Assembly: GCF_041886205.1 (NCBI RefSeq)
Contig: NZ_CP169029.1
Strand: one strand, 5' to 3'
Length of the DNA stretch: 64,000 nt
Origin: Escherichia coli
GTDB taxonomy: Bacteria > Pseudomonadota > Gammaproteobacteria > Enterobacterales > Enterobacteriaceae
Shown here one piece after another: positions 13,921 through 53,166 of the stretch; the stretch's first letter is position 1, and each line of letters opens with the position of its first letter. The translations under genes and the position numbers were made by a program. A model generated the notes under the pieces. It was not told where the DNA came from. It saw only the letters and a program-made list of their open reading frames with translations, and made no database searches.

Positions 13921-13928
13921 AATAAAAC

Positions 13929-21223: not shown

Positions 21224-24200
21224 TTAAGCCCCTTTCAACATATCAAACACCACGCGGGCAAAGCCCTTCGCCAGTTCAGGATTAGAGAGGTATTGCACCA
21301 TCATCTCCTGCTGGGCGTCGTTGCTGTCCATCACGGCATCATCAATGGCTTTCGGGAAATCGCCCAGCATCGCCTGCTCACGCGTATTGTTCGCAATCTG
21401 GGTCATCACCGCCTGGTTTTCTGACAGCTTGTCGCGCACCGCGAAGGCATAATTGATCATGTCTTTATCGGTCAGATTATCGGTGACGAACAGCTCGTTC
21501 AGGCGCGCCAGGATATTCGACAGAAACTCTTCTTTCTTGTCTTTCGGCTTCGCCGTACCGACATCATTCCCCGGTGTGATTTTGTATTCTGCCGCATCTT
21601 CCTGCAGCTTCAGATGCTGTTCGTGGAGTTTCGACAGGCGATAATGGCTCATCTCCACGTTGCTTAAATCAATCTCATCTTCTTCGATACGCTGTTCATG
21701 CAGTAACGGGCGCAGGTGGCGGGCAAATAGGCTCAGTTTTTCCAGGTTCTTGTCGTCGTAATCGACGATTTGCGACATAAACTCGTAAAAGCGGACAAAG
21801 CTGCCGAGGTCTTTCTTGAAGATATCCAGCTTACTTTTTTCTTTCTCGCACTCTTTGAAGCTGTTTTCCGCATTGGTGATCAGCACAACATCGCCGGTCT
21901 TCTTAGTACGTTCGAAGATCGCTTTGGCCTTTACATACTCGTCAATCGCCGAGGTGTAACGCTGTTTCCAGCGCTGCACCGCTGGTTTGCAGATATTACT
22001 AATGGCCGCGTTGGATTTGTTTTTGCTGAAGAACGCTTCGCAGAACTGCTCCACTTCGTTCCACAGGAAAATACCGCTGGTACGCAGCTTTTCAAAGAGC
22101 TCAAAGACCTGTTGCGGGTCGCTGACATCCGTCAGTTCTGCTGTCTGGTAGTACGGCTGGAAAGCCCCCAAAATCTCGTCGGGCTCGTTGTAGAAATCGA
22201 GCACAAAGGTGCCTGACTGCGCCTTCCCCGGATAGGTACGGTTCAGGCGTGACAGCGTCTGTACACACTCCACGCCGCCAAGCTTTTTATCCACATACAT
22301 GGCACACAGCTTGGGTTGGTCAAAACCGGTCTGGAATTTGTTGGCCACCAGCATCACCTGGTAGTCGTCGGTATCAAACGCTTTGCGCATATCCCGGCCT
22401 TTCAGGCCTGGGTTCATATTGATTTCGGTGAACTTCTGGTTAAGCAATGCAAGGCTATTGTGGTCATCTTCATGGAACTCAACTTCACCGGAGAACGCCA
22501 CCATTGCGCTGATCTTGTCGTATTTTTGCTCGGCGATGTATTTATCGAATGCCAGCTTATAGCGCACCGCTGCTTTACGCGAACTGGTCACCACCATCGC
22601 TTTCGCCTGACCAGCCAGTAAGTGCATCACATGCTTGCGGAAGTGCTCAACAATCACCTTCACTTTCTGCGACACGTTATGATCGTGCAGCGATACCCAC
22701 TGGTTGAGTTTGATCTTGGCTTTCTTGCTGTCTACTTCCCGGTCAGGATCGTCCAGCTTTTGCAGCAGCTTGTACGCCACCTTGTAGTTGGTGTAGTTCT
22801 TCAGCACATCAAGTATGAAGCCTTCTTCGATGGCCTGACGCATTGAGTAAACGTGAAACGCTTCCGGTTTGTTCGTTTTCGACGCCGGTTCCTGCGGATT
22901 AGGACGACGGCCAAACAGCTCCAGCGTTTTGGCTTTCGGCGTGGCGGTAAAGGCGTAATAGTTGAGATTGTTGCTGCCTTTACGTGCGGCGACGGTGGCA
23001 TCCAGAATATCTTCTGAAGACATCTCCACATCGTCATCCGCTTCTTCGGTCATAAGCACTTCTTTCAGCTGACGCGCCGTAGAACCACTCTGCGAGGAGT
23101 GCGCTTCATCGGCAATCACCGCGTATTTGCGCTGCTTGAGGCTGACGCTGTTTTCAATCGCCTTCAGGACAAACGGGAACGTCTGGATAGTGACGATAAT
23201 GATCGGCTGCGAGTTTTCCAGCGCGCTGGCCAGCTTCTCCGATTTAGAACCGTCGCCTTCTTTGTTATTGATCCGCCCGACCACGCCATCCTGATGCTCA
23301 AACTGATAGATGGTGTCCTGCAGCTGATCGTCAAGCACGGTGCGGTCCGTCACCACAATCACCGAATGGAACTGCTTCTCGCCATTTTCATCATACAGGC
23401 GGGAAAGCTGATGGGCCGTCCAGGCGATAGAGTTAGATTTGCCCGACCCGGCACTGTGCTGAATCAGGTATTTATTGCCGGTGCCTTCCACTGTGGCGGC
23501 GGTGATCAGTTTATTCACCACATCCCACTGGTGATAGCGTGGGAAAATCAGGCTCTCACTTTTGTACTTCAGGCCAATGGCATCTTCTTTTTCTACGATT
23601 TGCAGATGCACGAAGCTCGCGAGAATTTTCAGCAGATTGTCCGGCAGTAGCACCTCATTCCACAGGTAGCTGGTGGCGTAGTCGTTGGCATCTTCCGGGA
23701 TATCGTTCCCCGCACCGCCGTCATGGGTGCCTTTGTTAAACGGCAGGAAGAAGGTTTTATCGCCCTCGAGTTTGGTCGCCATAAACACTTCGTACTGGCT
23801 GACGGCAAAGTGCACCAGCGCGCCGCGTTTAAAGGTCAGCAGCGGCTCGGGTTTATTAGTGCCTGGGTCCTTTGGCAAACGCGTTTTCTTATATTGCGTA
23901 ATGGCGTTTTGCACCGTCTGCTTAAATTCAGACTTCAGTTCCAGGGTCGCTATCGGCAGGCCATTAACGAACAATACCAGGTCGATACGCCATTTCTTCG
24001 CTTTTATACCGGTATCTTCAAATGCGGCGTTCGATGCATGCGGGCTGTAAACCAGCTCCGGCACGATGCGGCAGATATTCTGTTTATAACGAGCCAGTGT
24101 TTCCGGATTGAGGTTATGTTCCGGCTTAAACTGGCACAGAGAAAAACGCGCGTTATGGCTTTTGATACCATGTCGCAGCACGCCTAAAGTGCCATAGGTG

Positions 24201-24472
24201 CGCGAAAGCATATCAGTAGCGTTGATGTCCGCTTTTTTCAGCTGCGCCACCAGCGCATCGAGGAAATGACGTTCGGTATCGGTAGGGTAAATTTTGGCAA
24301 ACTTCTCCCACTCCTGCGGCTGTGTGGTCTGCACAAAGGTCAGCACATCCTGGGAATACAGCGCACGTTCGCGATCATAGCCGTCAGTTTTGCCACAAAT
24401 CCAGCCTTTTGCTTTCATCTGAGCAATCATTTCGTTCTGGAAGATAAGCTCTTTGGTGCTGTCCATGCTCAT
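21224..24472 (-). CDS. hsdR: Type I restriction enzyme R subunit (HsdR)
   Basis: 1082 aa; N-terminal PD-(D/E)xK (IDLVLFVNGLPIATLELKSE), helicase motif I HSAGSGKSNS, DEAH box VIADEAHSSQ. Confidence 0.88.
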   Translation of the reverse strand: MSMDSTKELIFQNEMIAQMKAKGWICGKTDGYDRERALYSQDVLTFVQTTQPQEWEKFAKIYPTDTERHFLDALVAQLKKADINATDMLSRTYGTLGVLRHGIKSHNARFSLCQFKPEHNLNPETLARYKQNICRIVPELVYSPHASNAAFEDTGIKAKKWRIDLVLFVNGLPIATLELKSEFKQTVQNAITQYKKTRLPKDPGTNKPEPLLTFKRGALVHFAVSQYEVFMATKLEGDKTFFLPFNKGTHDGGAGNDIPEDANDYATSYLWNEVLLPDNLLKILASFVHLQIVEKEDAIGLKYKSESLIFPRYHQWDVVNKLITAATVEGTGNKYLIQHSAGSGKSNSIAWTAHQLSRLYDENGEKQFHSVIVVTDRTVLDDQLQDTIYQFEHQDGVVGRINNKEGDGSKSEKLASALENSQPIIIVTIQTFPFVLKAIENSVSLKQRKYAVIADEAHSSQSGSTARQLKEVLMTEEADDDVEMSSEDILDATVAARKGSNNLNYYAFTATPKAKTLELFGRRPNPQEPASKTNKPEAFHVYSMRQAIEEGFILDVLKNYTNYKVAYKLLQKLDDPDREVDSKKAKIKLNQWVSLHDHNVSQKVKVIVEHFRKHVMHLLAGQAKAMVVTSSRKAAVRYKLAFDKYIAEQKYDKISAMVAFSGEVEFHEDDHNSLALLNQKFTEINMNPGLKGRDMRKAFDTDDYQVMLVANKFQTGFDQPKLCAMYVDKKLGGVECVQTLSRLNRTYPGKAQSGTFVLDFYNEPDEILGAFQPYYQTAELTDVSDPQQVFELFEKLRTSGIFLWNEVEQFCEAFFSKNKSNAAISNICKPAVQRWKQRYTSAIDEYVKAKAIFERTKKTGDVVLITNAENSFKECEKEKSKLDIFKKDLGSFVRFYEFMSQIVDYDDKNLEKLSLFARHLRPLLHEQRIEEDEIDLSNVEMSHYRLSKLHEQHLKLQEDAAEYKITPGNDVGTAKPKDKKEEFLSNILARLNELFVTDNLTDKDMINYAFAVRDKLSENQAVMTQIANNTREQAMLGDFPKAIDDAVMDSNDAQQEMMVQYLSNPELAKGFARVVFDMLKGA

Positions 24473-25791
24473 GCGGTGGCCTCCTGTGGCTCCTCAGCGT
24501 CCTGCGTGTCAGGTGCTACCCAATCACGGACGTCGATTTTTCCGGTGACGGCAGCGGAGATCAGGGCGGTACGGCGTTCCTGGAGAATTTGAATAGTCTG
24601 CTCGACCATTTCTTGAGTTATTTGTATTTTGTCTATCTTTTCCAGTACTTTTTTTGCCAGATAAACCTGATCATCAAAAGGAATATCTCTCACGTAAAAA
24701 TTACTAATTTGCTCTGGACTAATATGCGGCACACTAACACCAGTCAAGTCTATTTCAGCATATTCTCTGAATTCATTGCTACTAAGACATAATTTAATAA
24801 ATGGTTGATATGATTTTATATTTGACCTTATCCTTGCAACTCGCTGCAATAAGAGGCAAGGTAAATCCTGCTCTTTAATTTCTGAAACCCTTGCTCCAGA
24901 ACTAATCCATGGTCTATCCATACCAAAAACAATATCGCCAGCCGCTAATAAATAATCACTGAGCCTATCGAGTGTTCTAACATCCCAATATACAACGTCA
25001 TCCCATTTTATGCTGTCAACACCGACATTAACCCCTCGTAAAAGAGGAATACTATTATCAGGTGAAAATTTAAATTTTGTACTTGAAAATGGATAGCCAG
25101 TTTGAATACTAACTAAGTTTTTTAGCTTAGTTTTCCTCTCATTACTACGTATACTGGCGACACTTGAGATCACGGCCTGACGCTTTTCTTTAAGTAGTTC
25201 AATTAGTTGCTGTTGCTTCTCGATCAGGTTATCGATTTTTGCAGTTTCGTGATCGAGGAAACTGTATATTTTTTCCTGCTCAGTCTTGTCTGGAAGCAGC
25301 AGCTCAATATTTCTAAATTCATCAGGATCCAGATCCCATTGATTGACTCGTATCCCCTTGGAGCGGCTCAGATATTGAGTAACGTAAATCGGGTTGCGAA
25401 GTAAATAATGCACATACCTTGGATGTGCCAGTTCAAAAAGGACATTGTTGGGTTTATAGACAAAATATGCCGGACTAACTATCCCTTCATACTCTGAAAT
25501 TGCGATTGAACCTTGCCAGGCTTTCATCTTATTCATAACCAAATCATTTGGCTCAACCAATTGATAGGGGGACAAATCCTCTGAAGGCTTATTATTGTTA
25601 TCATCTCTGCTTGATTTTGGTATAACACCATAGTCCCGATATACGGAAAGCAATTCTTTCTCTGTATATCCGGTCCGCTTGATCCTGGAAAACAATCTGG
25701 ATATGGATACGGTTTTCCAGTGATTCGGAATCTCCCCCAACCACTCAACCCCAGAATCCTTATACTCCGGATACATCTTATACTTCGCCAT
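24469..25791 (-). CDS. hsdS: Type I restriction-modification specificity subunit (HsdS)
   Basis: 440 aa with two target-recognition-domain-like halves separated by a coiled-coil-like spacer; overlaps hsdM stop and hsdR start. Confidence 0.8.
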   Translation of the reverse strand: MAKYKMYPEYKDSGVEWLGEIPNHWKTVSISRLFSRIKRTGYTEKELLSVYRDYGVIPKSSRDDNNNKPSEDLSPYQLVEPNDLVMNKMKAWQGSIAISEYEGIVSPAYFVYKPNNVLFELAHPRYVHYLLRNPIYVTQYLSRSKGIRVNQWDLDPDEFRNIELLLPDKTEQEKIYSFLDHETAKIDNLIEKQQQLIELLKEKRQAVISSVASIRSNERKTKLKNLVSIQTGYPFSSTKFKFSPDNSIPLLRGVNVGVDSIKWDDVVYWDVRTLDRLSDYLLAAGDIVFGMDRPWISSGARVSEIKEQDLPCLLLQRVARIRSNIKSYQPFIKLCLSSNEFREYAEIDLTGVSVPHISPEQISNFYVRDIPFDDQVYLAKKVLEKIDKIQITQEMVEQTIQILQERRTALISAAVTGKIDVRDWVAPDTQDAEEPQEATA

Positions 25792-28175
25792 CAGGAATGT
25801 ACCTCCCGCAGCAGCTTCATAATCTCGGTACTGACTGCATCCAGATCGGCATCAATCTCTTCCAGTGGGCGCGGCGGCTGATAGACGTAGAAATGGCGGT
25901 TAAACGGAATCTCATAACCGACAATTCCCACCTCACCATCTTTCGCATCACGCTTATCGGCGTTGATCCACGCATCATTTACATGCGGCAGCACTTCTGC
26001 TTTGAAGTAGTTTTCGATCAGGTCGCTGGTCGACATTGCCGGGTTCAGCGGCACGTTTTCGTTATCGCGCAGCTCGCCGTCCTGTTCGAACTCAACAACC
26101 TTGCCTTTGTACTCAAACGCACCGTACAGCGGCTGAGCGGCTTCTTTCAGCACCTTCTTCACCACCGGCTCGGCATCCGGGTTTTTCGTGGTAATGGCAT
26201 CGATAAACTGCTTGTTCTCTTTCGCATCCAGCTTCACGCCAGCCGTTTTGATGGCCCCTTTCAGGGTCAGTTGGAACTGATTGAAGTCATTGCTCACCCG
26301 CGTTTTGCCACCCGCCTGCGCACCCAATACCACCTGAATCTGCTGTGCTTTTTCCATGAACTCGCGCTGTGCCAGCCACAATTTGCTGTCGAGCAGGTCT
26401 TTAATCTGCTTCTCTTTCAGCTCTGCAAATTCGGCTTTGATGATGGCGCGCGCTTCGGCTTCCAGTTCGGAGAAATCACCATAGCTGTCCTCCCTCCACT
26501 GGGATGCGAACTCTTCATACAGGCGTTCCATTGGCGCGTTAAACGGCTTCGGCGCAAAGCGCAGAGTCGCAATCGCTTCATCAGTCACCTGTGCAGATAA
26601 CCGCAGCGGGCGCTCAATGGTCAGGCGGCGATAGCCAAAGTCGGTGCTGTTAAAGATTTTGCTGGCGAAGGTTTTCGGAGCTTCGGTTTTGGCCATGGCA
26701 GGCTGACGGCCACGGTTGGATTTTTGCTCGGCGGCTTTTTCCAGACCCAGTTCTTCCAGGGCTGTGACATCCACCACCTGAAAATCACCGAAGGTCTGCG
26801 TGATCAGTTTGATATCGTCTTCGCCCATCAGGTTGCGCTTGGAACCCAGCGATTTACGCATTTTGCCGCACAGGTTAGTGCCATCAATCAGCTGTACTTT
26901 TCCTTTACGCTCAGGCGCTTTCTTGTTGGAGAGGATCCAGACGTAGGTGGCAATACCGGTGTTGTAGAACATATCTGTTGGCAGCGCGACGATGCCTTCC
27001 AGCAAATCGGCTTCCAGAATGTAGCGACGGATTTCGCTCTCACCGCTGCCCGCACCACCAGTAAACAGTGGAGAGCCGTTAAGGATAATCCCGATACGTC
27101 CGCCGTTGCTCACGGTGCCATCCACATTGTGGTTGTCGCGCATTTTGCTGATCAGGTGCATCAGGAACAGCAGCGAGCCGTCGGAAACACGCGGCAGGCC
27201 CGGGCCAAAGCGACCGTTAAAGCCCTTTTGCGTATGTTCGTCGTTAATCTCGCCCTCAATCTTCTTCCAGTCCACGCCAAACGGTGGGTTAGACAGCATG
27301 TAGTCGAATTGATCCAGCGGTAACTGGTCGTTAGAGAGGGTGTTACCCAGCTTAATGCGGCTGACGTCCTGACCTTTGATCAGCATGTCGGCTTTACAGA
27401 TAGCGTAGGATTCCGGATTCAGCTCCTGACCAAAAGCGCGCATCACCGCGTTAGGGTTCAGCTCGTGCACATATTCCATGCCCGAAGAGAGGAAACCACC
27501 CGTCCCGGCCGTCGGGTCATAAATGGTGCGGATGATACCAGGCTGCGTCAGGGCTTCATCATCTTCCATAAACACCAGTGAAGTGGTCAGACGCACGATA
27601 TCGCGTGGGGTGAAGTGCTCACCGGCGGTCTCGTTAGATCTTTCCGCGAAACGACGGATAAGTTCTTCAAACACCAGGCCCATCTCATAGTTGGAAATCG
27701 CTTTCGGGCTGAGATCGGTGGTGGCGAATTTCTTCACTACTTTGAACAGCAAGTTGGCGTCTTCCAGCAGGCCGACGAACTCACTGAATTTAAAATGCTC
27801 GAAGATTTCACGCGCATCGGGCGAGAACGACTGGACGTAATTCTCCAGGTTGGCTTTGATGTCGTTCTGCCCCATCTTGCCAAGATCCATCTTCGAGGTG
27901 TTGAAGAAGGAAAGCTCGCTGGCGCGCAGCAGAAACTTCTCTTTGGCATCTTCCGGCAGCGTGCTGGTTTTTAATTCATCATATTTCGCCACCACCGCAT
28001 CTTTGGTCTCCGCCAACACACACTCAAGACGGCGCAGCAGCGTAAAGGGCAGGATCACGCGCCCGTACTGAGACTGTTTGAAATCACCGCGCAGTAGATC
28101 GGCCACCGACCATATAAACGCAGCCGTTTGAGAAAAGTTAGTGTTAGTCATAAGCGACACCCAAAAAAATGGCAT
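25791..28175 (-). CDS. hsdM: Type I restriction-modification methyltransferase subunit (HsdM), long form; alternative start at 28151
   Basis: N-terminal HsdM_N-like region ([37 protein letters not shown]), NPPF catalytic motif, about 250-aa C-terminal extension. Confidence 0.82.
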
Positions 28176-32428: not shown

Positions 32429-33736
32429 CTATCTCTGCCCAAACAGGTTAACGACATTGTTTTCCTGCTGTTGCTGGTGGTTATTCACCCGAGACTCCCA
32501 GATCTCGAGAGCCTTACGCTTTTCAACCAGGTAATCGTAACGATCGTAGTGTTTAGAACTCACATCCTGTAGAGCATGGTTCTGAATGCGGTCACGCAGG
32601 TCTTTAGCAATACCCGCTTCGCCCATCAGGGTCTTACAGGTACGACGAATATCACGCGCAATAAAAGATGGGCTCAACGCAAAGTGTTGCCGGTAATAAA
32701 TGATGGCTTGTGCAAAGCTGTCTGTGCGTAGATGCTGTTCCGGTTTAATACGCTGCGGGAAGATGTAAGGACTCTGACTATGATTCTCAGCTTTCAACTT
32801 TTCGAGTATCTCAATGGCTGACTCAGTCAAAGGCACCAGATGATCCCTTTTATTTTTCGACACATCCGCCACTATCAATAACGTTTTTTCTTCCCAGTTA
32901 ACGGCATCCCAACGGCTGGAAACCAGTTCATGAGGCCGCTGGCCACCCGTATAGACACACAAGTTAAGCAATTGGCTGATTAACGGGCCGACCTTTGGTG
33001 CTTTAGGGAAATCCCCCATCAGTTGCTGCAACTCATCCAGCTTCAGCCAGTTTGTCCCTGCCTTCTCCGCTGCAGATTGTTTGGGTATGACACTCACTGG
33101 GTTCATTTGAAGCCCAAACATCACGTTCTGCTGGTGGTTTGCCGGATCGTTGTCAGCCTTCAACCCATAATTGAATGCTGCCATCAGATAAGAGCGAACA
33201 CGATTTGCTTCAACTGATGCGCCACGTTTAATAATGGTGGCCAGAATTTGTTTGATATGAGCGGGGATAACGTCACGCGCTTTCGTCGCTTTAGGTATAA
33301 ATGGATAGGTTTCTTTTTCCAGCCGGTACAAAACCTGTTGCCAGGTGCGTTTACCGTCTTCACGCATTTTGGTGGTGTAACCCAAAATGAGTTGCTCAAT
33401 GCTGCCTTTGAGCTGGTCTTCACGTTGTTGTTGTTCGGCAGAGAAAAGCTGCTCTGCGATTTCAGCTTTGGGGTCTTTCCCTTCTTTAAGAAGACCCGCA
33501 TGTTCTTTACATTGCTGTCTTGCCTGCGCGAGTGACAACTCTGGGAAACGGCCAAGCAGAATGAATTGCCGTTTTCCTTGCCAAAAATAACGATAGTAAA
33601 ATACTCGCTGACCCGATGGCTCAACTTTCACCCCTAATCGCCCTGCCCCACGCTCACCACTTTTATCCCATTCATAATAAGCAGTAGTCTTCGGCTTCAA
33701 GCCACTAATCATTGAGACAGTTAAATTATCAGCCAT
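32429..33736 (-). CDS. P4-type tyrosine integrase of the ileY island
   Basis: N-terminal arm-binding-like domain (MADNLTVSMISGLKPKTTAYYEWDKSG...RVFYYRYFWQGKRQ); start trimmed from ORF 33838 to ATG at 33736; adjacent to attR. Confidence 0.82.
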   Translation of the reverse strand: MADNLTVSMISGLKPKTTAYYEWDKSGERGAGRLGVKVEPSGQRVFYYRYFWQGKRQFILLGRFPELSLAQARQQCKEHAGLLKEGKDPKAEIAEQLFSAEQQQREDQLKGSIEQLILGYTTKMREDGKRTWQQVLYRLEKETYPFIPKATKARDVIPAHIKQILATIIKRGASVEANRVRSYLMAAFNYGLKADNDPANHQQNVMFGLQMNPVSVIPKQSAAEKAGTNWLKLDELQQLMGDFPKAPKVGPLISQLLNLCVYTGGQRPHELVSSRWDAVNWEEKTLLIVADVSKNKRDHLVPLTESAIEILEKLKAENHSQSPYIFPQRIKPEQHLRTDSFAQAIIYYRQHFALSPSFIARDIRRTCKTLMGEAGIAKDLRDRIQNHALQDVSSKHYDRYDYLVEKRKALEIWESRVNNHQQQQENNVVNLFGQR

Positions 33737-33758
33737 AGTATTTTTCAGTCCTTTGTTC

Positions 33759-33804
33759 GTTACGTCACCCAGTCTGATTCTGGGTGACGTAGTGGGTGAC
33801 GTAA
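33759..33804. repeat. Three GGGTGACGTA motifs (one inverted, two direct) upstream of the island integrase
   Basis: gttacgtcaccc ... tgggtgacgtagtgggtgacgtaa; same motif as 13977-14001. Confidence 0.45.
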
Positions 33805-33929
33805 GGATGATACTGAAGGTAAAAACGCAGAACAACATGAAACAACAACCAGCAAATAACCTACTGTTATTTATTAAATTTAATCTAACGTGAAAAAAGA
33901 TGCAAAATCATGAAACATGGATTTCATAT

Positions 33930-33976
33930 GACTCATAATCGCTTGGTCGCTGGTTCAAGTCCAGCAGGGGCCACCA
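33930..33976 (+). repeat. 47-bp direct repeat of the ileY 3' end (attR of the island)
   Basis: Identical to tRNA positions 13874-13920. Confidence 0.85.
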
Positions 33977-34731
33977 AATCATCATTCATGTATCAGGAAG
34001 AGTTAAGGGTACAAGGGGTACTCGATGGCGGTCTATATTTCACGATTAACGCCATTTCAAGGAAGAAGTGCGGTGGGTGGTTTCGAATGAGGGCTGGTGT
34101 TTTGGTACGTGGCATGCCACTGCAATGTATTTATCCATCAGTACTCATTCAAAAGTACCTGGAAAAAATGCCCGCTATGCCAAGCGGGCAAATTGCTTAC
34201 ATGTGGAATTAAGTAATTAACGATAAAGCCAGAGTATTATCATTTATCATGCCTCTTCATTTAATCAGGTTAATTACTCAAATCACTGAACTATTCTCTG
34301 TTCGCTTACTGATGATAAGTGAAGTGTCACAACCACGATTTGTATGTGGACCAATGCCGTAGAGTAAGGATGAAATGTCTCTGCCACGCATTAAACATCT
34401 ACTACTGACCAGAACACCCGCCGCAGGCAGATGAGTCTTGTGAGTATTACAGAAGCATGGCTATGCTCATTAACCAACTCTAATAGATATAAATTCCTAA
34501 CACTCGAAAAACGAATTTCACTAATAAGTCATAACGGGTGATTTTTATCATACAGCGAAATAACCTTTTGTTTATTAAATTTAACATTCTTGTGCTTATT
34601 TAATTAAAAATTCCATGCGTAGCATGTGAAACAGTTAATGTCAGCAAATGTCTCAAATGAGCGATTTTTTATAGTGACAAACAGTAATAACGTTAAAAAT
34701 AGCCATGAAGACATTAACTGAGGAATAGACA

Positions 34732-36081
34732 ATGTTAGTTAGTAAAAGCAACGAATTTAACACTAGCGCAGTTTTGGCTAGCAGGAATTATAATGAAAAC
34801 AATTCTTCCAACCCCATGGGGCTACTAGCTTATAGTATTTTAAATTTAATTTGTAAGGAAGCTGCCTCAGGGACGTACAACGGTGCTATTGAAATTTTAC
34901 AAAAAATGATGTCTGAATGTAAATATCAAGAAGGCAACGCCTTTGTCATTATGGGATCTGGAGAACAATTAAAACGTATTAAATATGATGTTGATGAAAA
35001 TAACTTAAAAGTATTCAACGTACACTTTAATAATAATGAAGAGTTAGTTACTGATGGTGAGCCTGACGTAGTATGTTTAAGCAAGCAGGAGTGGGAAAAT
35101 CTTCTCATTAAATTAAAACCGGAGATTAAAGAAAATGTGTTTTCTGAAAATAACAAATCATCGAGAGAAAATAATGTTGATCAGTATGTTCAATCCGCTA
35201 AAAGAAATGAACAGGCCCTTTTCGATAATATAATAAAAAGTGATTTTCATGTTGCTTCACTTCAGCCAGGTAGTACGCGTAGTGTTATTTCAGAAACGCC
35301 ACGAAATGTCTGTATGGAACCACGTAATTCCTATGAAACCAAAATAGATGAGATTTCATCTTTGTCAGAGTCAAAGGAACACTCCATAGATATTCAAGAA
35401 AAAACAGATGCGTTTGTGAATGAGTTCAAGGGGATATTATTTGATAAAAATGGAACGTCTTCAGAGTTTCTACTTAATTTTTATGAATGTTGCTATGAGT
35501 TTTTACCAAGAGCGCAGCCTCAGGATAAAATCGATAGCTATAATTCAGCACTGCAAGCTTTTTCCATCTTTTGTTCATCTACGTTGACACATAATAATAT
35601 AGGCTTTGATTTCAAATTATTTCCAGAAGTCAAGCTGTCTAGAGAACATCTTGAAACGGTATTCAAATACAAAAATGGCGATGATGTCCGGGAGATAGCC
35701 AAAATTAACATTACTCTCCAAAAAGAAGAGGGTGGTTTATATAATTTACGTGGATTAGATTTTAAGGGATGCTTCTTTTCTGGACAGAACTTCAGTAACT
35801 ATGATATTCAATATGTGAACTGGGGAACGTCATTGTTTGATCTTGATACTCCATGTATTTTTAATGCGCCTGCTTACAACAAGAGTAATGAAAAATCATT
35901 AGAACGCGTCAGCGAAAACGGTTTAAGTGGAGTCTTGTCTGATCGTAATAAAAAAATAAAACTCATCACGGGCGTGGCACCATTCGATGATATTTTATTT
36001 ATGGATGACGACTTTGATGATAGTTCCTCTGAGGATGATCCCGTTGAGAATAGTCCTGTTGTGACTAGTCCCCTTGTATAA
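34732..36081 (+). CDS. Hypothetical AT-rich protein (449 aa), possibly YpjC-like; acidic Ser/Asp-rich C-terminus
   Basis: Long clean ORF, low GC, Asn/Lys-rich; position equivalent to ypjC next to the ancestral ileY junction. Confidence 0.45.
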   Translation: MLVSKSNEFNTSAVLASRNYNENNSSNPMGLLAYSILNLICKEAASGTYNGAIEILQKMMSECKYQEGNAFVIMGSGEQLKRIKYDVDENNLKVFNVHFNNNEELVTDGEPDVVCLSKQEWENLLIKLKPEIKENVFSENNKSSRENNVDQYVQSAKRNEQALFDNIIKSDFHVASLQPGSTRSVISETPRNVCMEPRNSYETKIDEISSLSESKEHSIDIQEKTDAFVNEFKGILFDKNGTSSEFLLNFYECCYEFLPRAQPQDKIDSYNSALQAFSIFCSSTLTHNNIGFDFKLFPEVKLSREHLETVFKYKNGDDVREIAKINITLQKEEGGLYNLRGLDFKGCFFSGQNFSNYDIQYVNWGTSLFDLDTPCIFNAPAYNKSNEKSLERVSENGLSGVLSDRNKKIKLITGVAPFDDILFMDDDFDDSSSEDDPVENSPVVTSPLV

Positions 36082-36485
36082 AGTTCTAAAAGCAGTTTTC
36101 AATGATAAATAAATGGCTATTTTTACGAAGAGATAATAACGTAGATTGAAACAATATGTATTATTGATTGAGTAAACGGGATTATTATTCACACTACATC
36201 CATTTTAGTGTCACTACCAAAGAAAAAGGGGCTACGTTTTCATGTAACCCCTTGATTTATTTGGTGGGCTGGCAGTGACTGAATTGGTGCTGTAATTGGT
36301 TGAAATATTTCATCTAATGTCTGGTTTAACTTTCCTTAGCTGCCTGAAAGTTTTTTGATCTCACCCAGCAATAACAGCGTTACGGTGCACCACGACTGAC
36401 TGAAGAACTGCGTGCTCAGGGTTACCACTTCAACGTAAAACCGTGGCAGGAGGTCCGGACTGAAAAAACTGCTCAGGACATTATC

Positions 36486-36612
36486 GGCAGGGTACGCACT
36501 GGTAGTCTGTAAACTGAACCGACTGGGGCGCAGTATGTGGCATCTTGTCGTGCTGTTGGAGGAGCTGTGCGAACGTGGTATTAACTTTCGTGCTCTGGCC
36601 CAATCTATATTT
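36486..36612 (+). pseudogene. pinH: Serine recombinase (Pin/Gin invertase family) fragment, pinH-like
   Basis: Translation ...[37 protein letters not shown] matches the resolvase catalytic-domain motif; no intact N- or C-terminus. Confidence 0.6.
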
Positions 36613-42079: not shown

Positions 42080-44413
42080 TTATGTCGCGGTGGTTTCGTC
42101 GCACCGGGGCAGCCAGTCGGCGTTGCTTTCCTCCCTGAGCGCAAGGTTCGTCTGCATCCCCTGATTTGTTCGCCGCCTGGCGTAATTCAGCCCGTACTCT
42201 TTCAGCATCGATGACAGCCCTTTGCCGAACATGGTCAGGCTGAGGGTGTTCTTGTAGCCGTGCGCCTCCATGTAAACCAGATAGGCGTGATACAGGTACA
42301 GGCGCGGCTGTCGCGGGATGATATTCGCATTCCCCATGTACATACCGTCAGGCTCGGGCAGCGCCTCCAGATAGCCACAAAAATCGAATGTCGGGTCAGC
42401 GTCGCGCTTGATGCTGAGTGCCTCGTCGGAGTTCTGCTGCGACTGGAGCAGTGTGCGCGCGGTCATCGGGTCGCTGAACGTCTGCATAAGCTGACGCACG
42501 ATGACGGCCAGCTCGCGGGCAATTTTATCTTTCAGCTTCGGGTCACGCTCCTCCGGGGCAATCTGTTCCGGGAAGTGCATTATCACCCGGCGACGCGACA
42601 CGCCGCCGCTGCGGTCGGTGAAGCGCATCGGATTGTTGTTTACGGCCAGTATCACCGCCGGAATATGGGTGGAGTACGCATCGCGGTATTTCGGGTCAAC
42701 CGAGACCGCATCCCCGCCGGTGATGGCCTTGAGTCCTGCCCCGTCACCGCTCCATTTCTCCTGGTCAGGCAGACGTATCAGCGAGAAGCCAATCAGCGCC
42801 GCGCGCTCGCGGGGGGATTCCAGCGTTTCGATAGTCGCTGACGTGGCGTTATCTTCCCCGGCGAGCATGGTCGCTATTTCGGCCAGAATACTTTTCCCGC
42901 TGCCACCGGGACCGGTCACTTCGAGGAAGAGCTGCCAGTCGTAGCGGTTCGCCAGCACCATAAACAGCGCGGCGAGTATCACGTCACGTTTATCGGCACG
43001 CGAACCGGCGGCGCGGTCGAGCCAGCGCCAGAAATTCGGCGCGTGCGTCTCCAGCGTTTCCCCCTCCACCGGCGGGGTGAAATCCACGTCGCACAGGGTG
43101 CGCAGCCAGTGCGTTTTGCTGTGCGGGCTGAATATACCGGTACTGGTATCAAGCACGCCGTTGCGAAAGCCAATCAGCCGCCGTGGCGGGGCATCCTGCT
43201 GCGGAATAATCAGTTTCAGGGTGTCCACCACCGAGGCAATTTTCCCCGACGAAAACGGGGCGCGCAGACGCTGGAACAGCCCGGCCACGTCGCGCGCAAA
43301 GTCTGACGGCGGAATGATTTTCCATATACCGGCTTCATAGCGGGACAGGAGCTGCCCGTTCGCATCCACCGCCAGCGCTTCGCCGTAATGCTCATGCACC
43401 CGCATGGCTTTCTCACTGGTGCTCATGGCGGTAAATTCCGCCTCGCTCATGGTAGAGAAAGGGCTTTCAGCCGGTGGCCGGATGGCGTCATACATGGCTT
43501 TACGCGTGGCCTCCCCACCGTGCTGTGTATACGCATCATTCCAGTCACCGAACACCGGCGGCAGGGCGACCACGCCCTCACAGGACTCTGCGGCCGCAGA
43601 CGCTTTGGTCTGGCCGTCGCCGTTAAGGTCACGGTCGGCGGCAATGACAATCCGGCAGGCCGGGTATTTGTGACGGGCAAGGCTCGCCAGAGAAAGGAGG
43701 TTCACCGACGACAGCGCCACCATGACGGTTTCGCCGGTCAGGTGATGCACGGTGAGCGCGGTCGCGTAGCCCTCCGCTATCCACAGCCGTTTTCCCGCCT
43801 CTTTTTTCCCGTCGAGAATATGACATGTCCCTTTTACCTGCCCCCCTTTCAGGGTGCGCTTGAGACCGTCCGCGTTAATGAGCTGGACGTTAACCAGTGC
43901 GCCGCTATCGTCATACAGCGGGACAACCACATCCCCGGCACGGTACGTCACACCGCCGGTTTTGTGCATGGCCGTCAGTACCTGACATTCCCGGCCGGGA
44001 AAGCCCTTGCGGGTGAGGTAGGCGTTGCCGGTGGCCGGTTGGGTTTTCTCCATCAGTCTGGCGGCCAGCGCGGCCGCCGCTTTGCGGTCGGCCTCCGTTT
44101 CAGCGTCTGCGGCCGCAGTCACCGCCGGGGATACCGGAGGCAGGTTGCCGGTCACGGCGTTCACCTTCCCGGCCGCCTCTGACGGGGTCACGCCGAACAC
44201 TTTCTCAACCAGTTTCAGACCGTCCCCCGCGCCGCACTGGTTACAGAACCACGTCCCGCGTCCCTCCTTATCGTCAAAGCGAAAGCGGTCGGAGCCGCCA
44301 CACACCGGACAGGCCTGATGACGGTTTTTGATGACCGTTACCCCCAGCGCCGGGAGAATGCGCGGCCAGTGGCCGCACGCCTGTTTCACGGTGTCCGTTA
44401 CGTTCATTTTCAT
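42080..44413 (-). CDS. P4 alpha-type primase-helicase
   Basis: 777 aa; N-terminal zinc-binding primase region CPVCGGSDRFRFDDKEGRGTWFCNQCG; Walker A-like GPGGSGKS. Confidence 0.85.
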   Translation of the reverse strand: MKMNVTDTVKQACGHWPRILPALGVTVIKNRHQACPVCGGSDRFRFDDKEGRGTWFCNQCGAGDGLKLVEKVFGVTPSEAAGKVNAVTGNLPPVSPAVTAAADAETEADRKAAAALAARLMEKTQPATGNAYLTRKGFPGRECQVLTAMHKTGGVTYRAGDVVVPLYDDSGALVNVQLINADGLKRTLKGGQVKGTCHILDGKKEAGKRLWIAEGYATALTVHHLTGETVMVALSSVNLLSLASLARHKYPACRIVIAADRDLNGDGQTKASAAAESCEGVVALPPVFGDWNDAYTQHGGEATRKAMYDAIRPPAESPFSTMSEAEFTAMSTSEKAMRVHEHYGEALAVDANGQLLSRYEAGIWKIIPPSDFARDVAGLFQRLRAPFSSGKIASVVDTLKLIIPQQDAPPRRLIGFRNGVLDTSTGIFSPHSKTHWLRTLCDVDFTPPVEGETLETHAPNFWRWLDRAAGSRADKRDVILAALFMVLANRYDWQLFLEVTGPGGSGKSILAEIATMLAGEDNATSATIETLESPRERAALIGFSLIRLPDQEKWSGDGAGLKAITGGDAVSVDPKYRDAYSTHIPAVILAVNNNPMRFTDRSGGVSRRRVIMHFPEQIAPEERDPKLKDKIARELAVIVRQLMQTFSDPMTARTLLQSQQNSDEALSIKRDADPTFDFCGYLEALPEPDGMYMGNANIIPRQPRLYLYHAYLVYMEAHGYKNTLSLTMFGKGLSSMLKEYGLNYARRRTNQGMQTNLALREESNADWLPRCDETTAT

Positions 44414-44424
44414 GGTGTTCTCCC

Positions 44425-44745
44425 TCAGTGCAGCGCCGGTGCGGTGATATGACGGGCGCAGAGTTCATCCATCACGGCCAGCCCGAGAAAGGACAGCGAC
44501 GGCGCGGCCTTGAGTGGTCCGGCTTCCATTAAATCTTCGAGCAGGGCACAGGCAATCTGACGGCCTTTTTCCTCGCCATGCTGGCGCAGGTAGAAGCCCT
44601 CCAGCTCGGTCGCAATGGCGCTTTCCAGCGTACTGAGCGTGAGCTGCGGGTAGCGGTGCTGACGTTCGCACAGGGTCAGCCATGCACAGGCCACGGCGCG
44701 GCGATAGAGCGCGGCGCGTAAGACGGGCGTTAATGGCTTTTTCAT
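44425..44745 (-). CDS. Hypothetical protein, 106 aa (same size and position as P4 orf106)
   Basis: ORF immediately upstream of the primase, start overlapping the upstream ORF stop. Confidence 0.45.
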
Positions 44746-45047
44746 ACGTTGCGCTCCCCGGCCAGCCAGCGCTGATTGCAGCGTTCGACCACACCTTCAA
44801 GCCGGGCGGTCATGAGGTAAATCACCGAGGTGAGCTGTAGCTGCTGCGCCGGATTGTGGCGCAAAGAGGTGCAGTCCTGCACCTGCATCAGTTCGCCGAC
44901 GAGCTGGCCGACGTTGCGAAGATGTTCGAGGCATTCGAGGTCTGCCCGGCTGATGGTGGGCTGGTTTATATTCTGCGACCGTTCCGTACTGTTAACAGGC
45001 ATTATTTCGTCTCCTGAGGACGTGCGTATCCCTGCGCAGATACGCAC
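44742..45047 (-). CDS. Hypothetical P4-like small protein, 101 aa
   Basis: Translationally coupled to neighbouring ORFs in the primase-upstream cluster. Confidence 0.45.
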
Positions 45048-45073
45048 ATTTTATTTTGGGGTGTCGTTTTTAA

Positions 45074-45523
45074 TTACAGATAACGGCGGTAGCTGTTATC
45101 CGGTTTTATTTCCGTTTCCAGCCTGAAATTATTCCGCCATTTATGCGCCACCGGCGCCGGGCGTTTAACCGGGGGAATATCATCAGGATAGTTATCGATA
45201 TTCCGCGCCCGGTATTGCTGTAATGCCGGGTCGGCCGCTATTTCGCGTAATACGGCGTGGCGGTTTTCAGGGTTGCGCTTAAATACATCGGGATGCTCAC
45301 AGGTAAAGTCCCGCAAAAAACGACTGAGCGGAATTTCTGCCATACGGCCACCGGCAATAATACGAATGAGGATGGTGTAGGTGCGCCGGTAAGGGTTCCA
45401 GACCAGCCCCGGACAGCGGTACGGCATATCCCACGGAATACCGTCGGCCAGCACGCCCGACACCACCACATCAGGAAATCCTGTACAGCGATATGTTTCG
45501 CCCGGCTGAGGGAAATCAAACAT
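45074..45523 (-). CDS. Hypothetical P4-like protein, about 149 aa
   Basis: ORF 45074-45565 trimmed to ATG at 45523, which overlaps the stop of the upstream small gene. Confidence 0.4.
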   Translation of the reverse strand: MFDFPQPGETYRCTGFPDVVVSGVLADGIPWDMPYRCPGLVWNPYRRTYTILIRIIAGGRMAEIPLSRFLRDFTCEHPDVFKRNPENRHAVLREIAADPALQQYRARNIDNYPDDIPPVKRPAPVAHKWRNNFRLETEIKPDNSYRRYL

Positions 45524-45815
45524 GGTGCTCCCCTCCGTTTCCCGACGTCGTGGCGAGAAAGTCACGGCACAGGCCTTTGGCTTTCAGCTCTTCCAGGACG
45601 TAGCTGACGTCCTCATGGATATAACTAAAAATCTGCGGCAGGTATAGCTGGTGTAAACCGTTCAGCTCACGGCGCAGCAAATCTCCACCGATGAACTGCG
45701 AGACGGCGCTGGCGCGATTGAGTTTATGGTACGCCTCAATGCTGAGGTGTTCCTGCATGGGGTTAAGGTCATCACGACGCGCTGAGATGGTCTGAGGGGT
45801 GTTTTTATTATGCAT
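45516..45815 (-). CDS. Hypothetical small protein, 99 aa
   Basis: ATG at 45815 preceded by a GGAGG RBS; the N-terminal part of the longer listed ORF is low-complexity and probably not translated. Confidence 0.4.
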
Positions 45816-46403
45816 GTGACACCTCCACAACCGGCAGACGGGCGGCAAGGGAAAGCACGTATTCCCGGACAAGGGTGCGGCGGGCGGCCAGCTCGTCACC
45901 GGCCACGGTGCGGAGCATACAGATACGGGGTTTACGGTCTGCACGACGGACGGCGGCAAACACAAAGACAAACTGAGGGTGTGACGGGGTGAGGGTCGTA
46001 GCCATAAGGCAACCTCCTTCGAGTAGCAAATTATTGCTATCGCCGGAGTTCTCACGCTCAGTGGCGATAGCCCAGACGGGGGTGAGAATACCGGCCTCGA
46101 AGAATACCGGCCAGCCCGAGGGCTGCCCCGCCTGAGCTACCATTGACATGACAGCATGATATGCGATTGCGGACAGGAGACACAAAGTGACGTCTGCACG
46201 ACGATCCGCACACCACGCCATTATCTGGCGCTCTGTGGCGTTAGTTGCGACACAAAAAAAGACGCATGGCGCGTCTGGTGTCGCCTTCGAGTTACTCGGG
46301 TTCTCACGCCCGGTTACCGATTTTGCGGCAACAGCAAAACTGTACCAGGAAACACACAACGGATGCAAGCCAGAAAAAGGGGCTTTGTGAAATCGGCTCT
46401 GAT

Positions 46404-46622
46404 TCATGCGTCGTATTTCCGGTTGCGGTGCGCGACACGTTCTTCCATCCATGCCGTGATTTCAGACTGTAGCCAGGCGACATTTTTACCCCCGAGGGAA
46501 ACCTGCGCCGGGAAAGCGTTACGGGCGATTAAATCGTAGAGCGTGGAGCGGGACAGGCCGCACTGATGAATGACTTCCGGGAGACGTAAAAAACGTTCCT
46601 GAGTCGGGGCTGAAACCGGCAT
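46404..46622 (-). CDS. alpA: AlpA-family transcriptional regulator of the P4-like element
   Basis: [49 protein letters not shown] matches the AlpA HTH family; start trimmed to MPVSAP. Confidence 0.7.
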
Positions 46623-46944
46623 CGGGTGCGCGGCAGTGGGGGACGGTGGTGCTGATGAAACTGTGTGCATAACGCTACCTCGTTAATATCCGCAGAGATC
46701 CGGACGTATCCGTCCGGTATCAGGTAGCGCTCTATTTTGTGAATATTTTTCTTCAATGCAACAGAGGCATGTTGTGTCGTGGAGCAGTTTTGTCTGTTAT
46801 TTAAGCAGCGACCTGAAAATATGAAAAATAATTGGCACATGACGCGCTGAGACGTTCATAAATCACAGTCAATTGATATCGCCTATCAATAGATAAAAAT
46901 ATAATTATTAAAACAATGACTCTCTAAAAGGAGCTTGCCGAAAC

Positions 46945-47050
46945 CAGTGAACAGTAGTGAACAGTTGGTGAACACTTTTCTCTCAACTGTTCACTCTTTA
47001 ATTTATTGTTTTATTTATATTTTTATACTGAGTGAACAGTAGTGAATAGT
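46945..47050. promoter_or_regulatory. Second TGAACAGT iteron cluster, P4 crr-like
   Basis: cagtgaacagtagtgaacagttggtgaacac ... caactgttcac ... gagtgaacagtagtgaatagt, about 5 kb from the ori-like cluster. Confidence 0.5.
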
Positions 47051-47218
47051 TATATGTAAAAAAACAAATAGAGTGAGGGGTTTTCCTGCGACCTTTCTCT
47101 GGCCAGCCGGGTTTTTAAGTCCTGTTTGTGCCATGTCTGCGACAACGGCAATGAATCGAGTTGTTGTCTGAGGGACGGCAGAATGGCGTCAGGTTGAAAA
47201 CACAGAGAGAACCCGACG

Positions 47219-48022
47219 ATGAAACCAGATTTGTTTACCGCAGTAATGAAAACCATCGGCAGCACGCAGGATGAGAACATCCGCACGGCCATTGACAGCG
47301 CACTGGATACCCTTAACGAGAAAGCAAACCAGAACGCAGAGGCCACGATAAATAATGCGCTTGAGGCATTCAGCAAGGCCAAATCCGCGCACACGGAAAA
47401 TATGCTGAAACTGAATGATATTGATGCGGCCATTACCCGCAGTGAGAAAGAGCGTCAGAACGCCCTGAATGAAAGTGCCGAAGCGGAACAGAACTGGCGT
47501 ACCCGTTTTCGCGAACTGCGCGGCATGATGACCCCGGAACTGAAAGCCGAACACAGTCAGCGAGTGGCCGGTCGGGAGCTGGCGGAGGAATTCACCGCCC
47601 TGATTGATGAGCTCAACGATGATAAAGCCAGTACCATGCTGGCCGCCTGTACATCAGGAGATAAGTACGTCGGCACGCATTTTACGGTGTTCTCTGCCTA
47701 CTCCCGGAATGAGTGGGCGACCGTGATGAAAGACATCCCTCCCTCACTGGTGCGCGCATTTGCGTTACGTCTGCGTGAACTCGAAATGAAAGGAGAAGAA
47801 CACCCTCACAACGTTCTCATTCAGGAACTGGGGGAGAATGTACTGGCGCAAAGCAGGTACTACACATTCAACATGGCGCAGGAGCCGGTAATTTCAAAAA
47901 TTGGGCTTCACCGTCCGGCACTCACCGGCGTGGATATGAAACTCTATAAAAGCCCGGTTCTCAGAATGGCGCGGGCTAAAGAGCTGGCACAGAAGAAAAA
48001 ATCGCGGGGGGTTAAGCCATGA
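47219..48022 (+). CDS. Possible Sid-like capsid size determination protein
   Basis: 267-aa alpha-helical protein immediately upstream of the Delta and Psu homologs, in the P4 sid-delta-psu order. Confidence 0.4.
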   Translation: MKPDLFTAVMKTIGSTQDENIRTAIDSALDTLNEKANQNAEATINNALEAFSKAKSAHTENMLKLNDIDAAITRSEKERQNALNESAEAEQNWRTRFRELRGMMTPELKAEHSQRVAGRELAEEFTALIDELNDDKASTMLAACTSGDKYVGTHFTVFSAYSRNEWATVMKDIPPSLVRAFALRLRELEMKGEEHPHNVLIQELGENVLAQSRYYTFNMAQEPVISKIGLHRPALTGVDMKLYKSPVLRMARAKELAQKKKSRGVKP

Positions 48023-48261
48023 TGCGCTGTCCGTACTGCAAACAGGCTGCCCATGTCCGTACCAGCCGTTACCTGTCGGATAACGTCAAACAGAGCTACC
48101 TCCAGTGCGTGAATGTCTTTTGCTCCGCAACCTTTCGCACCACCGAGTCTATCGACGAGGTAATACGGCCACCGGCAGAAGAAAAGCCCGAACCGCCGCA
48201 GACAGTACCAGAAACACCGCCCCGAATTCTGGACTGCGCCCGGTCATCGCTGCGCCACTGA
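48019..48261 (+). CDS. Ogr/Delta-family zinc-finger late transcription activator
   Basis: CPYCKQAAHVRTSRYLSDNVKQSYLQCVNVFCSATF matches the Ogr/Delta C-x2-C...C-x4-C pattern. Confidence 0.8.
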   Translation: MMRCPYCKQAAHVRTSRYLSDNVKQSYLQCVNVFCSATFRTTESIDEVIRPPAEEKPEPPQTVPETPPRILDCARSSLRH

Positions 48262-48277
48262 TTCAGGAGAAAAGACA

Positions 48278-48853
48278 ATGGCACGAGCACTACTGGAACA
48301 GGCCTTTGAAACCTGTCAGAAGAATAAATCGGACTGGGTGAGCAGCAAGTCAGCACTGGCGCGGGCTGAAATGGCGCTGAAAGAGCTGGAGCTGACCTGC
48401 ACCCGTTATGAACCGGAGGCCGCACAGGCGCTGCGGGATGATATTGACCTGAAAAAATGGGCGGTAAATCAGTCGGCCGGGCAGTACATCCGGTCACATG
48501 AGGCCGTGCAGCGTATCAGTATCCGGCGTCAGCTCCACGCCTTTATGCAGGTAAGCGGCGACGCGCTGGCCGCCGCACTGGCACCGGAATTAATGCATCT
48601 CTGCGAACAACCTGACATTGTCAGAGAACGGGCTCTCGACCGGGCGGCCGCCAGTGTTCGCGAAGCGCTGTCCGTTTATGTAACCCGCGGAGGAAATATT
48701 GATTACGCAGAGGATGATCGCGACATTCTGACAACCATCGGTTTCCGGCCTGACAGAGCATCGAGAGACGACAACCGGGCAAAATATACGCCTGAACAGA
48801 GTCAGATTTTCATGCGCCGACAGGCCGCGCAGACCCGCAAAAAATCCGCATAA
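48278..48853 (+). CDS. Psu-like polarity suppression protein
   Basis: 191 aa; remembered Psu-like motifs (KKWAVNQSAGQYIRSHEAVQ, AAALAPELM, DILTTIGFRPD); position after delta. Confidence 0.6.
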   Translation: MARALLEQAFETCQKNKSDWVSSKSALARAEMALKELELTCTRYEPEAAQALRDDIDLKKWAVNQSAGQYIRSHEAVQRISIRRQLHAFMQVSGDALAAALAPELMHLCEQPDIVRERALDRAAASVREALSVYVTRGGNIDYAEDDRDILTTIGFRPDRASRDDNRAKYTPEQSQIFMRRQAAQTRKKSA

Positions 48854-49113
48854 AACGCCCCGAAAATACCCGTCTTTTTAATAAAAATAGCCATGCATGC
48901 CTACGCTGCATGGCTTTGCATGCAAAAACCTGAATTTTCCACACCCCGCCGCACCAGCACTGGCGCGGCCTGAGTCCCTTCATGCGCCTGCATTAAAAGT
49001 GCCCCACGAAGCGGGCAGGCGTGGCGGGGAGAGCATTGCGCGCCAAGCGATATATAATTAATTAATGAAGAAGGATAGAATTAACCATATAGCCATAAAA
49101 AAGGATGCGGGTG

Positions 49114-50685: not shown

Positions 50686-50814
50686 AAACATTACGTTGCA
50701 AGTATATCTTGTATTCGTTCAACTTTGACCTGACACACCTCTGGCACAAAGCCCCAATCTCATAGGCGGTTCTATGCCAGGGGCTGAAAGTCTGTCTCTG
50801 GTAACATACACTTA

Positions 50815-53148: not shown

Positions 53149-53166
53149 TGTGGCCGCTCCTTCATG

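Follow-up and report, generated by a model that had tools for sequence, protein, structure and literature searches.

An intact Escherichia coli ypjCB allele holds the K-12 genes ypjC and ypjB in one reading frame

The closest described relatives of the gene considered here are ypjC (b2650, a pseudogene; 160 aa) and ypjB (b2649; 263 aa) of Escherichia coli K-12. A sigma-70 promoter (TTATCA-18-TTTAAT) with H-NS as its regulator has been reported upstream of K-12 ypjC (PMC3946193), and Hha binds the K-12 ileY/ypjC region, with a confirmed 9-fold change in ypjC (PMC2408971); a published K-12 study also linked Hha binding at rare-codon tRNA loci, ileY included, to the ypjC region. In a mixed commensal–pathogen biofilm K-12 ypjC was induced approximately 2-fold; its deletion led to a modest rise in colonization by EAEC (enteroaggregative E. 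coli) 55989, together with a 3.5-fold rise in the biofilm counts of the commensal itself, and its constitutive expression had no effect (PMC3646849). All of these experiments concern the K-12 allele, which is already truncated at codon 161, and none of the papers found in a literature search on ypjC and ypjB addressed the biochemistry of the protein. In the present study we analysed a 64000-nucleotide stretch of an E. coli contig (NZ_CP169029.1, assembly GCF_041886205.1; hereafter the window), in which one AT-rich ORF (open reading frame) was identified as an intact allele of ypjCB, with ypjC and ypjB in a single frame.

Identity, species range and architecture of YpjCB

The ORF runs from an ATG through 449 codons to a TAA (Table 1). 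The 2-kb region around it has 100% DNA identity with that of strain wlxctx60, in which RefSeq annotates the gene as ypjCB (WP_000961335.1). The translated product matched the NCBIfam model NF050179 with 939.4 bits against a cut-off of 650, residues 1–449 falling on profile positions 1–465, and Pfam placed both DUF5507 (PF17612; residues 1–160, 264 bits) and DUF5508 (PF17621; residues 195–449, 561 bits) on this one polypeptide. The gene of the K-12 strain DH1 is collinear with the ORF throughout its length and is flagged by RefSeq as a pseudogene with an internal stop; this stop is a lone TAG in place of the CAG that the window ORF has as codon 161. Thus the guess of an initial annotation, made from the letters of the window alone, that the ORF may be the intact form of the K-12 ypjC pseudogene was right, and the comparison with K-12 (Q161*) makes it, more precisely, the intact form of ypjC plus ypjB. 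We regard the identity of the ORF as an intact ypjCB allele as near certain. K-12 ypjC and ypjB, and likewise DUF5507 and DUF5508, are halves of a single gene, and the boundaries of the two Pfam families largely follow the break in the K-12 gene and not any structural domains that have been demonstrated. NCBI now uses the name YpjCB for the uninterrupted protein; the family is already known, and we do not claim a new system. The practical outcome is this link between annotations, and the window holds a rare intact allele that can be used for functional work.

Searches for relatives led back to the same family. phmmer against 1.84 billion representative proteins gave 44 matches, nearly all of at least 60% identity, and those inspected were fragments or variants of YpjCB itself. 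In a larger word-indexed search of 5.8 billion proteins, those of the best 120 matches that carry a source name were labelled E. coli, except for one labelled 'Enterobacteriaceae bacterium'; intact alleles remain frequent in the protein database, in which full-length YpjCB clusters were present on hundreds of contigs. Searches of Pfam, NCBIfam, PADLOC, PHROG and PDB sequences, the last with single-sequence, fragment and profile queries, gave no significant match beyond the DUF5507, DUF5508 and YpjCB models and phrog_30093, an uncharacterized PHROG that matches YpjCB itself; no family of PADLOC-DB v2 was hit at E values up to 10. tblastn detected no ypjCB in 50697 phage records and no true full-length ypjCB in plasmid records, where the matches came from three mislabelled chromosomes and, as a fragment only, from one plasmid of 245 kb. 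The three mislabelled PLSDB records (NZ_OL790696.1, NZ_CP134663.1 and NZ_CP141089.1) have lengths of 4.8–4.9 Mb and include the ypjCB locus of the chromosome.

A pattern scan of 100044 species, one genome each, returned a single ypjCB locus, on the 2.8-kb contig DEQI01000374.1 of the GTDB MAG (metagenome-assembled genome) 'Planococcaceae bacterium UBA3370'. As this contig carries the K-12 allele including the codon-161 stop, the MAG was almost certainly contaminated with DNA of E. coli K-12. The scan relied on two heptapeptide patterns only and is less sensitive than phmmer, so more weight was given to the phmmer result. With no homologue outside the family in the phmmer, species, phage and plasmid searches, ypjCB is an orphan gene restricted to E. 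coli; clear homology to a housekeeping family, which the initial annotation had named as an outcome that would speak against its proposal, did not emerge, as only the YpjCB family itself was found. Within the species, megablast located ypjCB in 3109 of 5426 complete genomes, always on the chromosome and nearly always as a single copy, at a fixed site in commensal, laboratory and pathogenic strains alike; the locus was absent from 43% of the genomes.

The GC content of the ORF (34.9%; 30% at third codon positions) is below that of the window (46.9%) and of the immediate flanks (41–45%), in agreement with the composition claimed initially. Rare codons are present (AUA for eight of the 27 Ile residues, UUA for 18 Leu and AGA for four Arg), and the AUA-containing gene adjoins ileY, whose tRNA reads AUA. 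Ser, Asn, Glu and Lys account for 10.5, 9.8, 8.9 and 7.1% of the residues respectively, so that the earlier description as Asn/Lys-rich stands for Asn but not for Lys, whose share is not notable, and Asn/Ser-rich is the better term. The product has a mass of 51 kDa, a net charge of −25, a pI of 4.7 and a polar N-terminus. A simple hydropathy test revealed no N-terminal hydrophobic secretion signal, no signal peptide and no transmembrane segment, the top 19-residue Kyte–Doolittle mean being 1.02 (residues 29–47). YpjCB is a soluble acidic protein.

AlphaFold models of YpjCB were poor, and fold searches with them gave no match, pentapeptide-repeat proteins included. The best conserved core comprises residues 244–380, with a predicted helical hairpin, a three-stranded beta meander and a short coil. 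The stretch that the initial annotation had quoted as pentapeptide-repeat-like, LRGLDFKGCFFSGQNFSNYD, is present in the protein, and residues 337–371 can be read as seven consecutive pentads (YNLRG LDFKG CFFSG QNFSN YDIQY VNWGT SLFDL), with L, F, I or W at the centre in all seven and D or N just before the centre in five. This periodicity was reached by none of 20000 composition-preserving shuffles. The description as pentapeptide-repeat-like was therefore apt, yet the match remains under the Pfam threshold: PF00805 (gathering threshold 20.2 bits) scored 15.0 bits on an isolated 62-aa segment and 12.9 bits on a 158-aa C-terminal segment, and it was not reported when the whole protein was compared with Pfam. 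The PDB sequence search gave a weak alignment with Qnr of Aeromonas (3pss; E 0.66).

The acidic Ser/Asp-rich tail noted initially was also recovered as DDILFMDDDFDDSSSEDD at residues 419–436, with nine D/E and no K/R in residues 421–449. It contains an LC3-interacting-region-like FDDI and a W-acidic-like DDFDDS, which resemble short motifs of eukaryotic type. No recognizable catalytic signature was seen in YpjCB. A candidate papain-like Cys/His site (invariant Cys253 and Cys254 on a helix, with His287) was rejected, because His287 is Asn in one variant and His306 varies.

Allelic divergence and repeated loss of ypjCB

For a single locus of E. coli, ypjCB varies to an unusual degree. Most locus-bearing genomes carry alleles with 90–95% DNA identity to that of the window, whose own allele group is rare (at least 99% identical in nine of the 3109). 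Intact proteins diverge down to approximately 71–76% identity (tblastn) and occur in forms of 449, 457 and 484 aa. An indel of 105 bp (35 aa) at 35354/35355, in the linker, which gives the 484-aa form its additional residues, is bounded in the long alleles by a TTCA repeat, and from this arrangement the short alleles appear to have lost the 35 linker residues by deletion between the repeats. Sliding identity revealed mosaic alleles with a minimum of 81–90% in the 5′ half of the ORF. Among the retrieved full-length variants, 47% of sites were polymorphic in residues 1–243 and 18% in residues 244–380, and the pN/pS (ratio of non-synonymous to synonymous polymorphism) of five intact alleles was 1.3 for residues 1–27, 0.53 for residues 28–130, 1.0 for residues 131–243, 0.61 for residues 244–380 and 1.1 for the tail. 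The dN/dS (ratio of non-synonymous to synonymous substitution; Nei–Gojobori method) was 0.6–0.8 for ypjCB, compared with 0.02–0.09 for glaH and lhgO and approximately 0.2 for ypjA, at similar dS.

A dN/dS this high overall, reaching approximately 1 in the linker and the termini, would fit the reading of the ORF as a functionless relic of an ancient island, by chance still open and decaying. About half or more of the locus-bearing genomes having a lesion, the absence of the locus from 43% of genomes, the lack of a homologue of known function and the state of the neighbours point the same way, since these are relics themselves (the pinH fragment and a nearby ORF of 39 aa, which the annotation of one strain gives as an ATPase gene with a frameshift). 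However, random placement of the substitutions observed between intact alleles predicted 4.5–6.8 premature stops per pair, and only 0.03–0.5% of the simulated sequences remained open (0.6–2% for the N-terminal 250 codons alone), a simulation that is biased by the choice of intact alleles; several alleles that are 9–11% apart in DNA are nonetheless fully open (P 0.0003–0.005). The broken alleles have just one to three lesions each and frames that are otherwise open, which means that most of the divergence arose while nonsense mutations were being removed. In addition, the pentapeptide core is nearly invariant, the start codon and the Shine–Dalgarno sequence are conserved in four alleles, and deletion of K-12 ypjC gives a measurable, though small, phenotype (PMC3646849). 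The preserved frame of the intact alleles thus contradicts decay without function, which we judge improbable. During the divergence of its alleles ypjCB behaved as a real protein-coding gene, under constraint that was weak and uneven.

ypjCB is also being lost repeatedly, through nonsense mutation, frameshifts, IS1 insertion and deletion. Of 17 loci sampled at regular intervals along the ranking, three were intact and seven had the K-12 nonsense mutation and were 99.8–100% identical to K-12. Three others shared a 1-bp deletion near codon 203 (GAAAACAAAA to GAAAAAAAA), two had other single-base deletions, one of them only approximately eight codons from the 3′ end, and two had IS1 insertions. 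Nine of ten sampled loci were flagged as pseudogenes. The exact K-12 63-mer with the TAG was found in 1232 genomes and an exact 90-mer with the 1-bp C deletion, which creates an A8 run near codon 203, in 282, the two lesions together accounting for approximately 49% of the locus-bearing genomes. With 43% of the genomes lacking the locus and this share of the remainder broken, ypjCB is intact in at most approximately 29% of complete E. coli genomes, a collection that is biased by clonal and laboratory strains. One further strain has a deletion, with IS1 at the junction, that extends from ypjCB across the pinH relic into the 5′ part of ypjA. IS1 is thus a recurrent visitor to the locus (NZ_CP062851.1 is among the records), inserted inside the gene in two strains and associated with a deletion in one.

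Neighbourhood and regulation of the locus

In its native order the locus comprises ileY, a 755-bp spacer, ypjCB, the pinH relic, the 39-aa ORF and the autotransporter gene ypjA/ehaD, and the order ileY–ypjCB–pinH′–ypjA is common to wlxctx60, DH1, ERL04-3476, 500010 and WL297. The sole difference in order between the window and the other strains is an island of 20056 bp at ileY, and it is through this insertion that attR lies upstream of ypjCB. attR marks where this 20-kb defence island ends on the right and where the native ileY–ypjCB spacer begins, and the placement of the ORF between attR and the pinH fragment in the initial annotation was confirmed. Strain wlxctx60 has the identical ypjCB region and no ileY island, its tRNA gene lying 755 bp upstream of ypjCB.

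The spacer (33980–34731) is approximately 96% conserved among four divergent alleles, compared with 81–90% for the 5′ half of the ORF. It contains a promoter-like site that matches the reported K-12 promoter and, judged by this match, may serve as the ypjCB promoter in the window strain. A GC hairpin at 34169–34190, also in the spacer, shows a run of T on the minus strand, as though ending a leftward transcript. Rfam gave no match on the leader and locus. Downstream of the gene, a GC-rich hairpin carries a run of T when read on the minus strand and, on the plus strand, the less marked T-rich tail GATTTATTT, and is therefore a possible bidirectional terminator.

A P4-like satellite occupies the ssrA site further along the window. 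Its HEPN_LA2681-domain protein and the 328-aa ORF beside it may be a defence pair; in wlxctx60 the same position of the satellite holds a SIR2 gene instead.

Table 1. Positions in the window of ypjCB, its parts and the features around it
Feature	Position	Strand	Comment
tRNA ileY	13845-13920		
ileY island	13874-33979		bounded by 50-bp exact direct repeats
McrC	17917-19215	-	ileY island cargo
McrB-like AAA protein	19215-21194	-	ileY island cargo
Type I restriction–modification (R-M) hsdR/S/M	21227-28175	-	ileY island cargo
Drt1a RT-nitrilase defence protein, 1274 aa	28311-32135	+	PADLOC 1396 bits
Integrase, ileY island	32429-33838	-	
attR	33930..33979	.	50-bp exact direct repeat of tRNA-Ile ileY 3′ end; other copy 13874-13923
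Promoter-like TTATCA-N17-TTTAAT	34237..34265	+	pattern match; ~470 nt upstream of ATG; conserved in four alleles
Shine–Dalgarno-like GAGGAA	34720..34725	+	7 nt before ATG; invariant in four alleles
ypjCB CDS (coding sequence)	34732..36081	+	DNA identical to RefSeq gene for WP_000961335.1, strain wlxctx60
Polar Ser/Asn-rich N-terminus, aa 1-27	34732..34812	+	allele sequence varies, composition kept; no structure in AlphaFold2 model
DUF5507, K-12 YpjC part, aa 1-160	34732..35211	+	low-confidence predicted alpha/beta core, aa 28-128
Hypervariable linker, aa 131-243	35122..35460	+	54% of sites polymorphic
Codon 161, CAG (Gln); TAG in K-12	35212..35214	+	nonsense site dividing the gene into ypjC and ypjB
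DUF5508, K-12 YpjB part, aa 195-449	35314..36078	+	PF17621
Pentapeptide-like stretch, seven units, aa 337-371	35740..35844	+	nearly invariant across alleles
Acidic tail, aa 419-436	35986..36039	+	DDILFMDDDFDDSSSEDD; then Pro/Val/Ser-rich end, length allele-dependent
GC-rich hairpin	36226..36253	.	~145 nt past stop; possible terminator
Serine-recombinase (pinH-type) fragment	36442..36609	+	56-codon relic; bounds locus on ypjA side
P4-like satellite at ssrA	42080-53695		
Satellite primase	42080-44413		
Satellite psu	48278-48853		
HEPN_LA2681-domain protein, 526 aa	49105-50685	+	satellite cargo between psu and int
328-aa ORF	50815-51801	-	satellite cargo between psu and int; no Pfam/PADLOC match
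Satellite integrase	51961-53148		
tmRNA (transfer-messenger RNA) ssrA	53333-53695	-	

Proposed role, alternatives and comparison with known proteins

The explanation we favour, at roughly even odds, is that ypjCB is a foreign, H-NS/Hha-silenced and dispensable gene whose product is a cytoplasmic binding protein. Its low GC content, together with the lack of the gene in other species, makes horizontal acquisition probable. As the promoter region of K-12 ypjC is both bound and regulated by H-NS/Hha, ypjCB is probably silenced under laboratory conditions and would be expressed only in particular settings such as a mixed biofilm. The lack of a recognizable catalytic signature weakly suggests binding as the likeliest mode of action. 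The C-terminal module would consist of the helical hairpin, the beta meander, approximately 1.75 turns of a pentapeptide-type beta-helix and the acidic tail. It may bind a partner that stays constant or imitate a charged surface, and the rapidly evolving N-terminal half and linker would adapt to a partner that varies. A constant C-terminal and an adaptable N-terminal part fit a dispensable accessory protein related to niche or conflict. As an orphan confined to one species, with deeply diverged mosaic alleles that have recently been inactivated again and again, ypjCB is a reasonable test case for the retention or loss by E. coli of foreign genes that H-NS silences.

A more specific possibility, to which we give a low probability, is that YpjCB is an intracellular conflict protein, either a single-gene sensor against phages or mobile elements or an acidic mimic of DNA or protein acting for or against defence, with the diversifying N-terminal half recognizing invaders and the conserved C-terminal module acting on them. 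The N-terminal half and linker are indeed fast-evolving and mosaic with the frame nonetheless kept, the gene is frequently lost in the manner of costly defence genes, and it lies between two integration hotspots with defence cargo (DRT1, type I R-M and McrBC at ileY; the P4-like satellite with HEPN at ssrA). The protein is also strongly acidic with a pentapeptide-type stretch, and the pentapeptide proteins Qnr and MfpA are DNA mimics. However, ypjCB sits in the fixed backbone between the islands and inside neither, seven repeats fall far below a Qnr-like DNA-mimicking rod, and there is no partner gene and, by Pfam, no nuclease, NTPase or other effector domain; the PADLOC models and the phage records likewise yielded no relative.

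An arms race behind the N-terminal diversification would make ypjCB a conflict gene of a new kind, and nothing found shows this. The boldest form of the idea is similarly doubtful. It would make YpjCB an E. coli-specific conflict protein of an undescribed kind, whose hypervariable N-terminal half recognizes a partner that keeps changing, for example a phage, mobile-element or host factor. In the same reading, the minimal pentapeptide beta-helix together with the acidic tail would serve for mimicry or docking, and the widespread nonsense (Q161*) and frameshift alleles would be adaptive, doing away with a function that is costly, and not the outcome of simple decay.

The initial annotation had seen in the architecture a loose resemblance to secreted effectors. 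Read in this way, YpjCB would resemble an effector and leave the cell by a non-classical route, through a type III secretion system (T3SS), whether that of the locus of enterocyte effacement (LEE), ETT2 (E. coli type III secretion system 2) or the flagellar one, with the polar N-terminus directing export, and with host-interaction motifs in the pentapeptide stretch and the acidic tail, in the manner of PipB2 and EspX. The Ser/Asn-rich N-terminus keeps its composition despite sequence change, but this may merely reflect AT-rich coding and is compatible with, rather than diagnostic of, a signal. Sec signals are absent, the size and layout are similar to those of EspX1 (473 aa), the gene is AT-rich and under H-NS control like many effector genes, and the O157-type strain ERL04-3476 has it uninterrupted where K-12 has a pseudogene. 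Intact alleles are, however, also found in strains from bear faeces, gull cloaca and human urine (as judged by isolation source), and the fixed site is shared with commensals. BLASTP against EspX1 of O157 Sakai found nothing similar (the best alignment covered 12 residues at E 2.7), no effector family matched in Pfam or NCBIfam, and the gene has no adjacent chaperone, no prophage or exchangeable-effector-locus context, no T3SS island and no phage copies. The resemblance to secreted effectors therefore found no support, and we think a role of this kind quite unlikely.

Equally unlikely in our view is that YpjCB modulates biofilm or colonization resistance, for example via the adjoining adhesin-like autotransporter YpjA/EhaD or other surface factors: the induction and deletion effects reported for K-12 ypjC favour it, but they were obtained with an allele already truncated at codon 161 and constitutive expression was without effect, YpjCB has no regulator or DNA-binding domain in Pfam, and the gap of approximately 900 bp to ypjA, with its gene relics and terminator-like hairpin, means that the two genes are not an operon.

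How, then, does the binding protein proposed above compare with known proteins? Its seven units fit the A(D/N)(L/F)XX periodicity of the pentapeptide-repeat proteins (PF00805; Qnr, MfpA and AlbG); however, they would make approximately 1.75 helical turns, compared with at least eight in the DNA-mimicking members, score below the gathering threshold, and are embedded in an otherwise unrelated protein of 449 aa, for which the fold searches gave no match to that family. With the pentapeptide-containing T3SS effectors, namely the EspX family of EHEC (enterohaemorrhagic E. coli) and PipB/PipB2 of Salmonella, YpjCB shares a similar size, an AT-rich gene, a polar N-terminus and repeats in its C-terminal half. 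It differs from EspX in having no sequence similarity to EspX1, no effector family match and no T3SS-linked context. The close comparison is with K-12 ypjC/ypjB, which occupies the same locus between ileY and pinH′–ypjA and has 92.7% DNA identity to the window allele; the latter is free of the interruption and stops eight codons sooner (449 compared with 457 codons).

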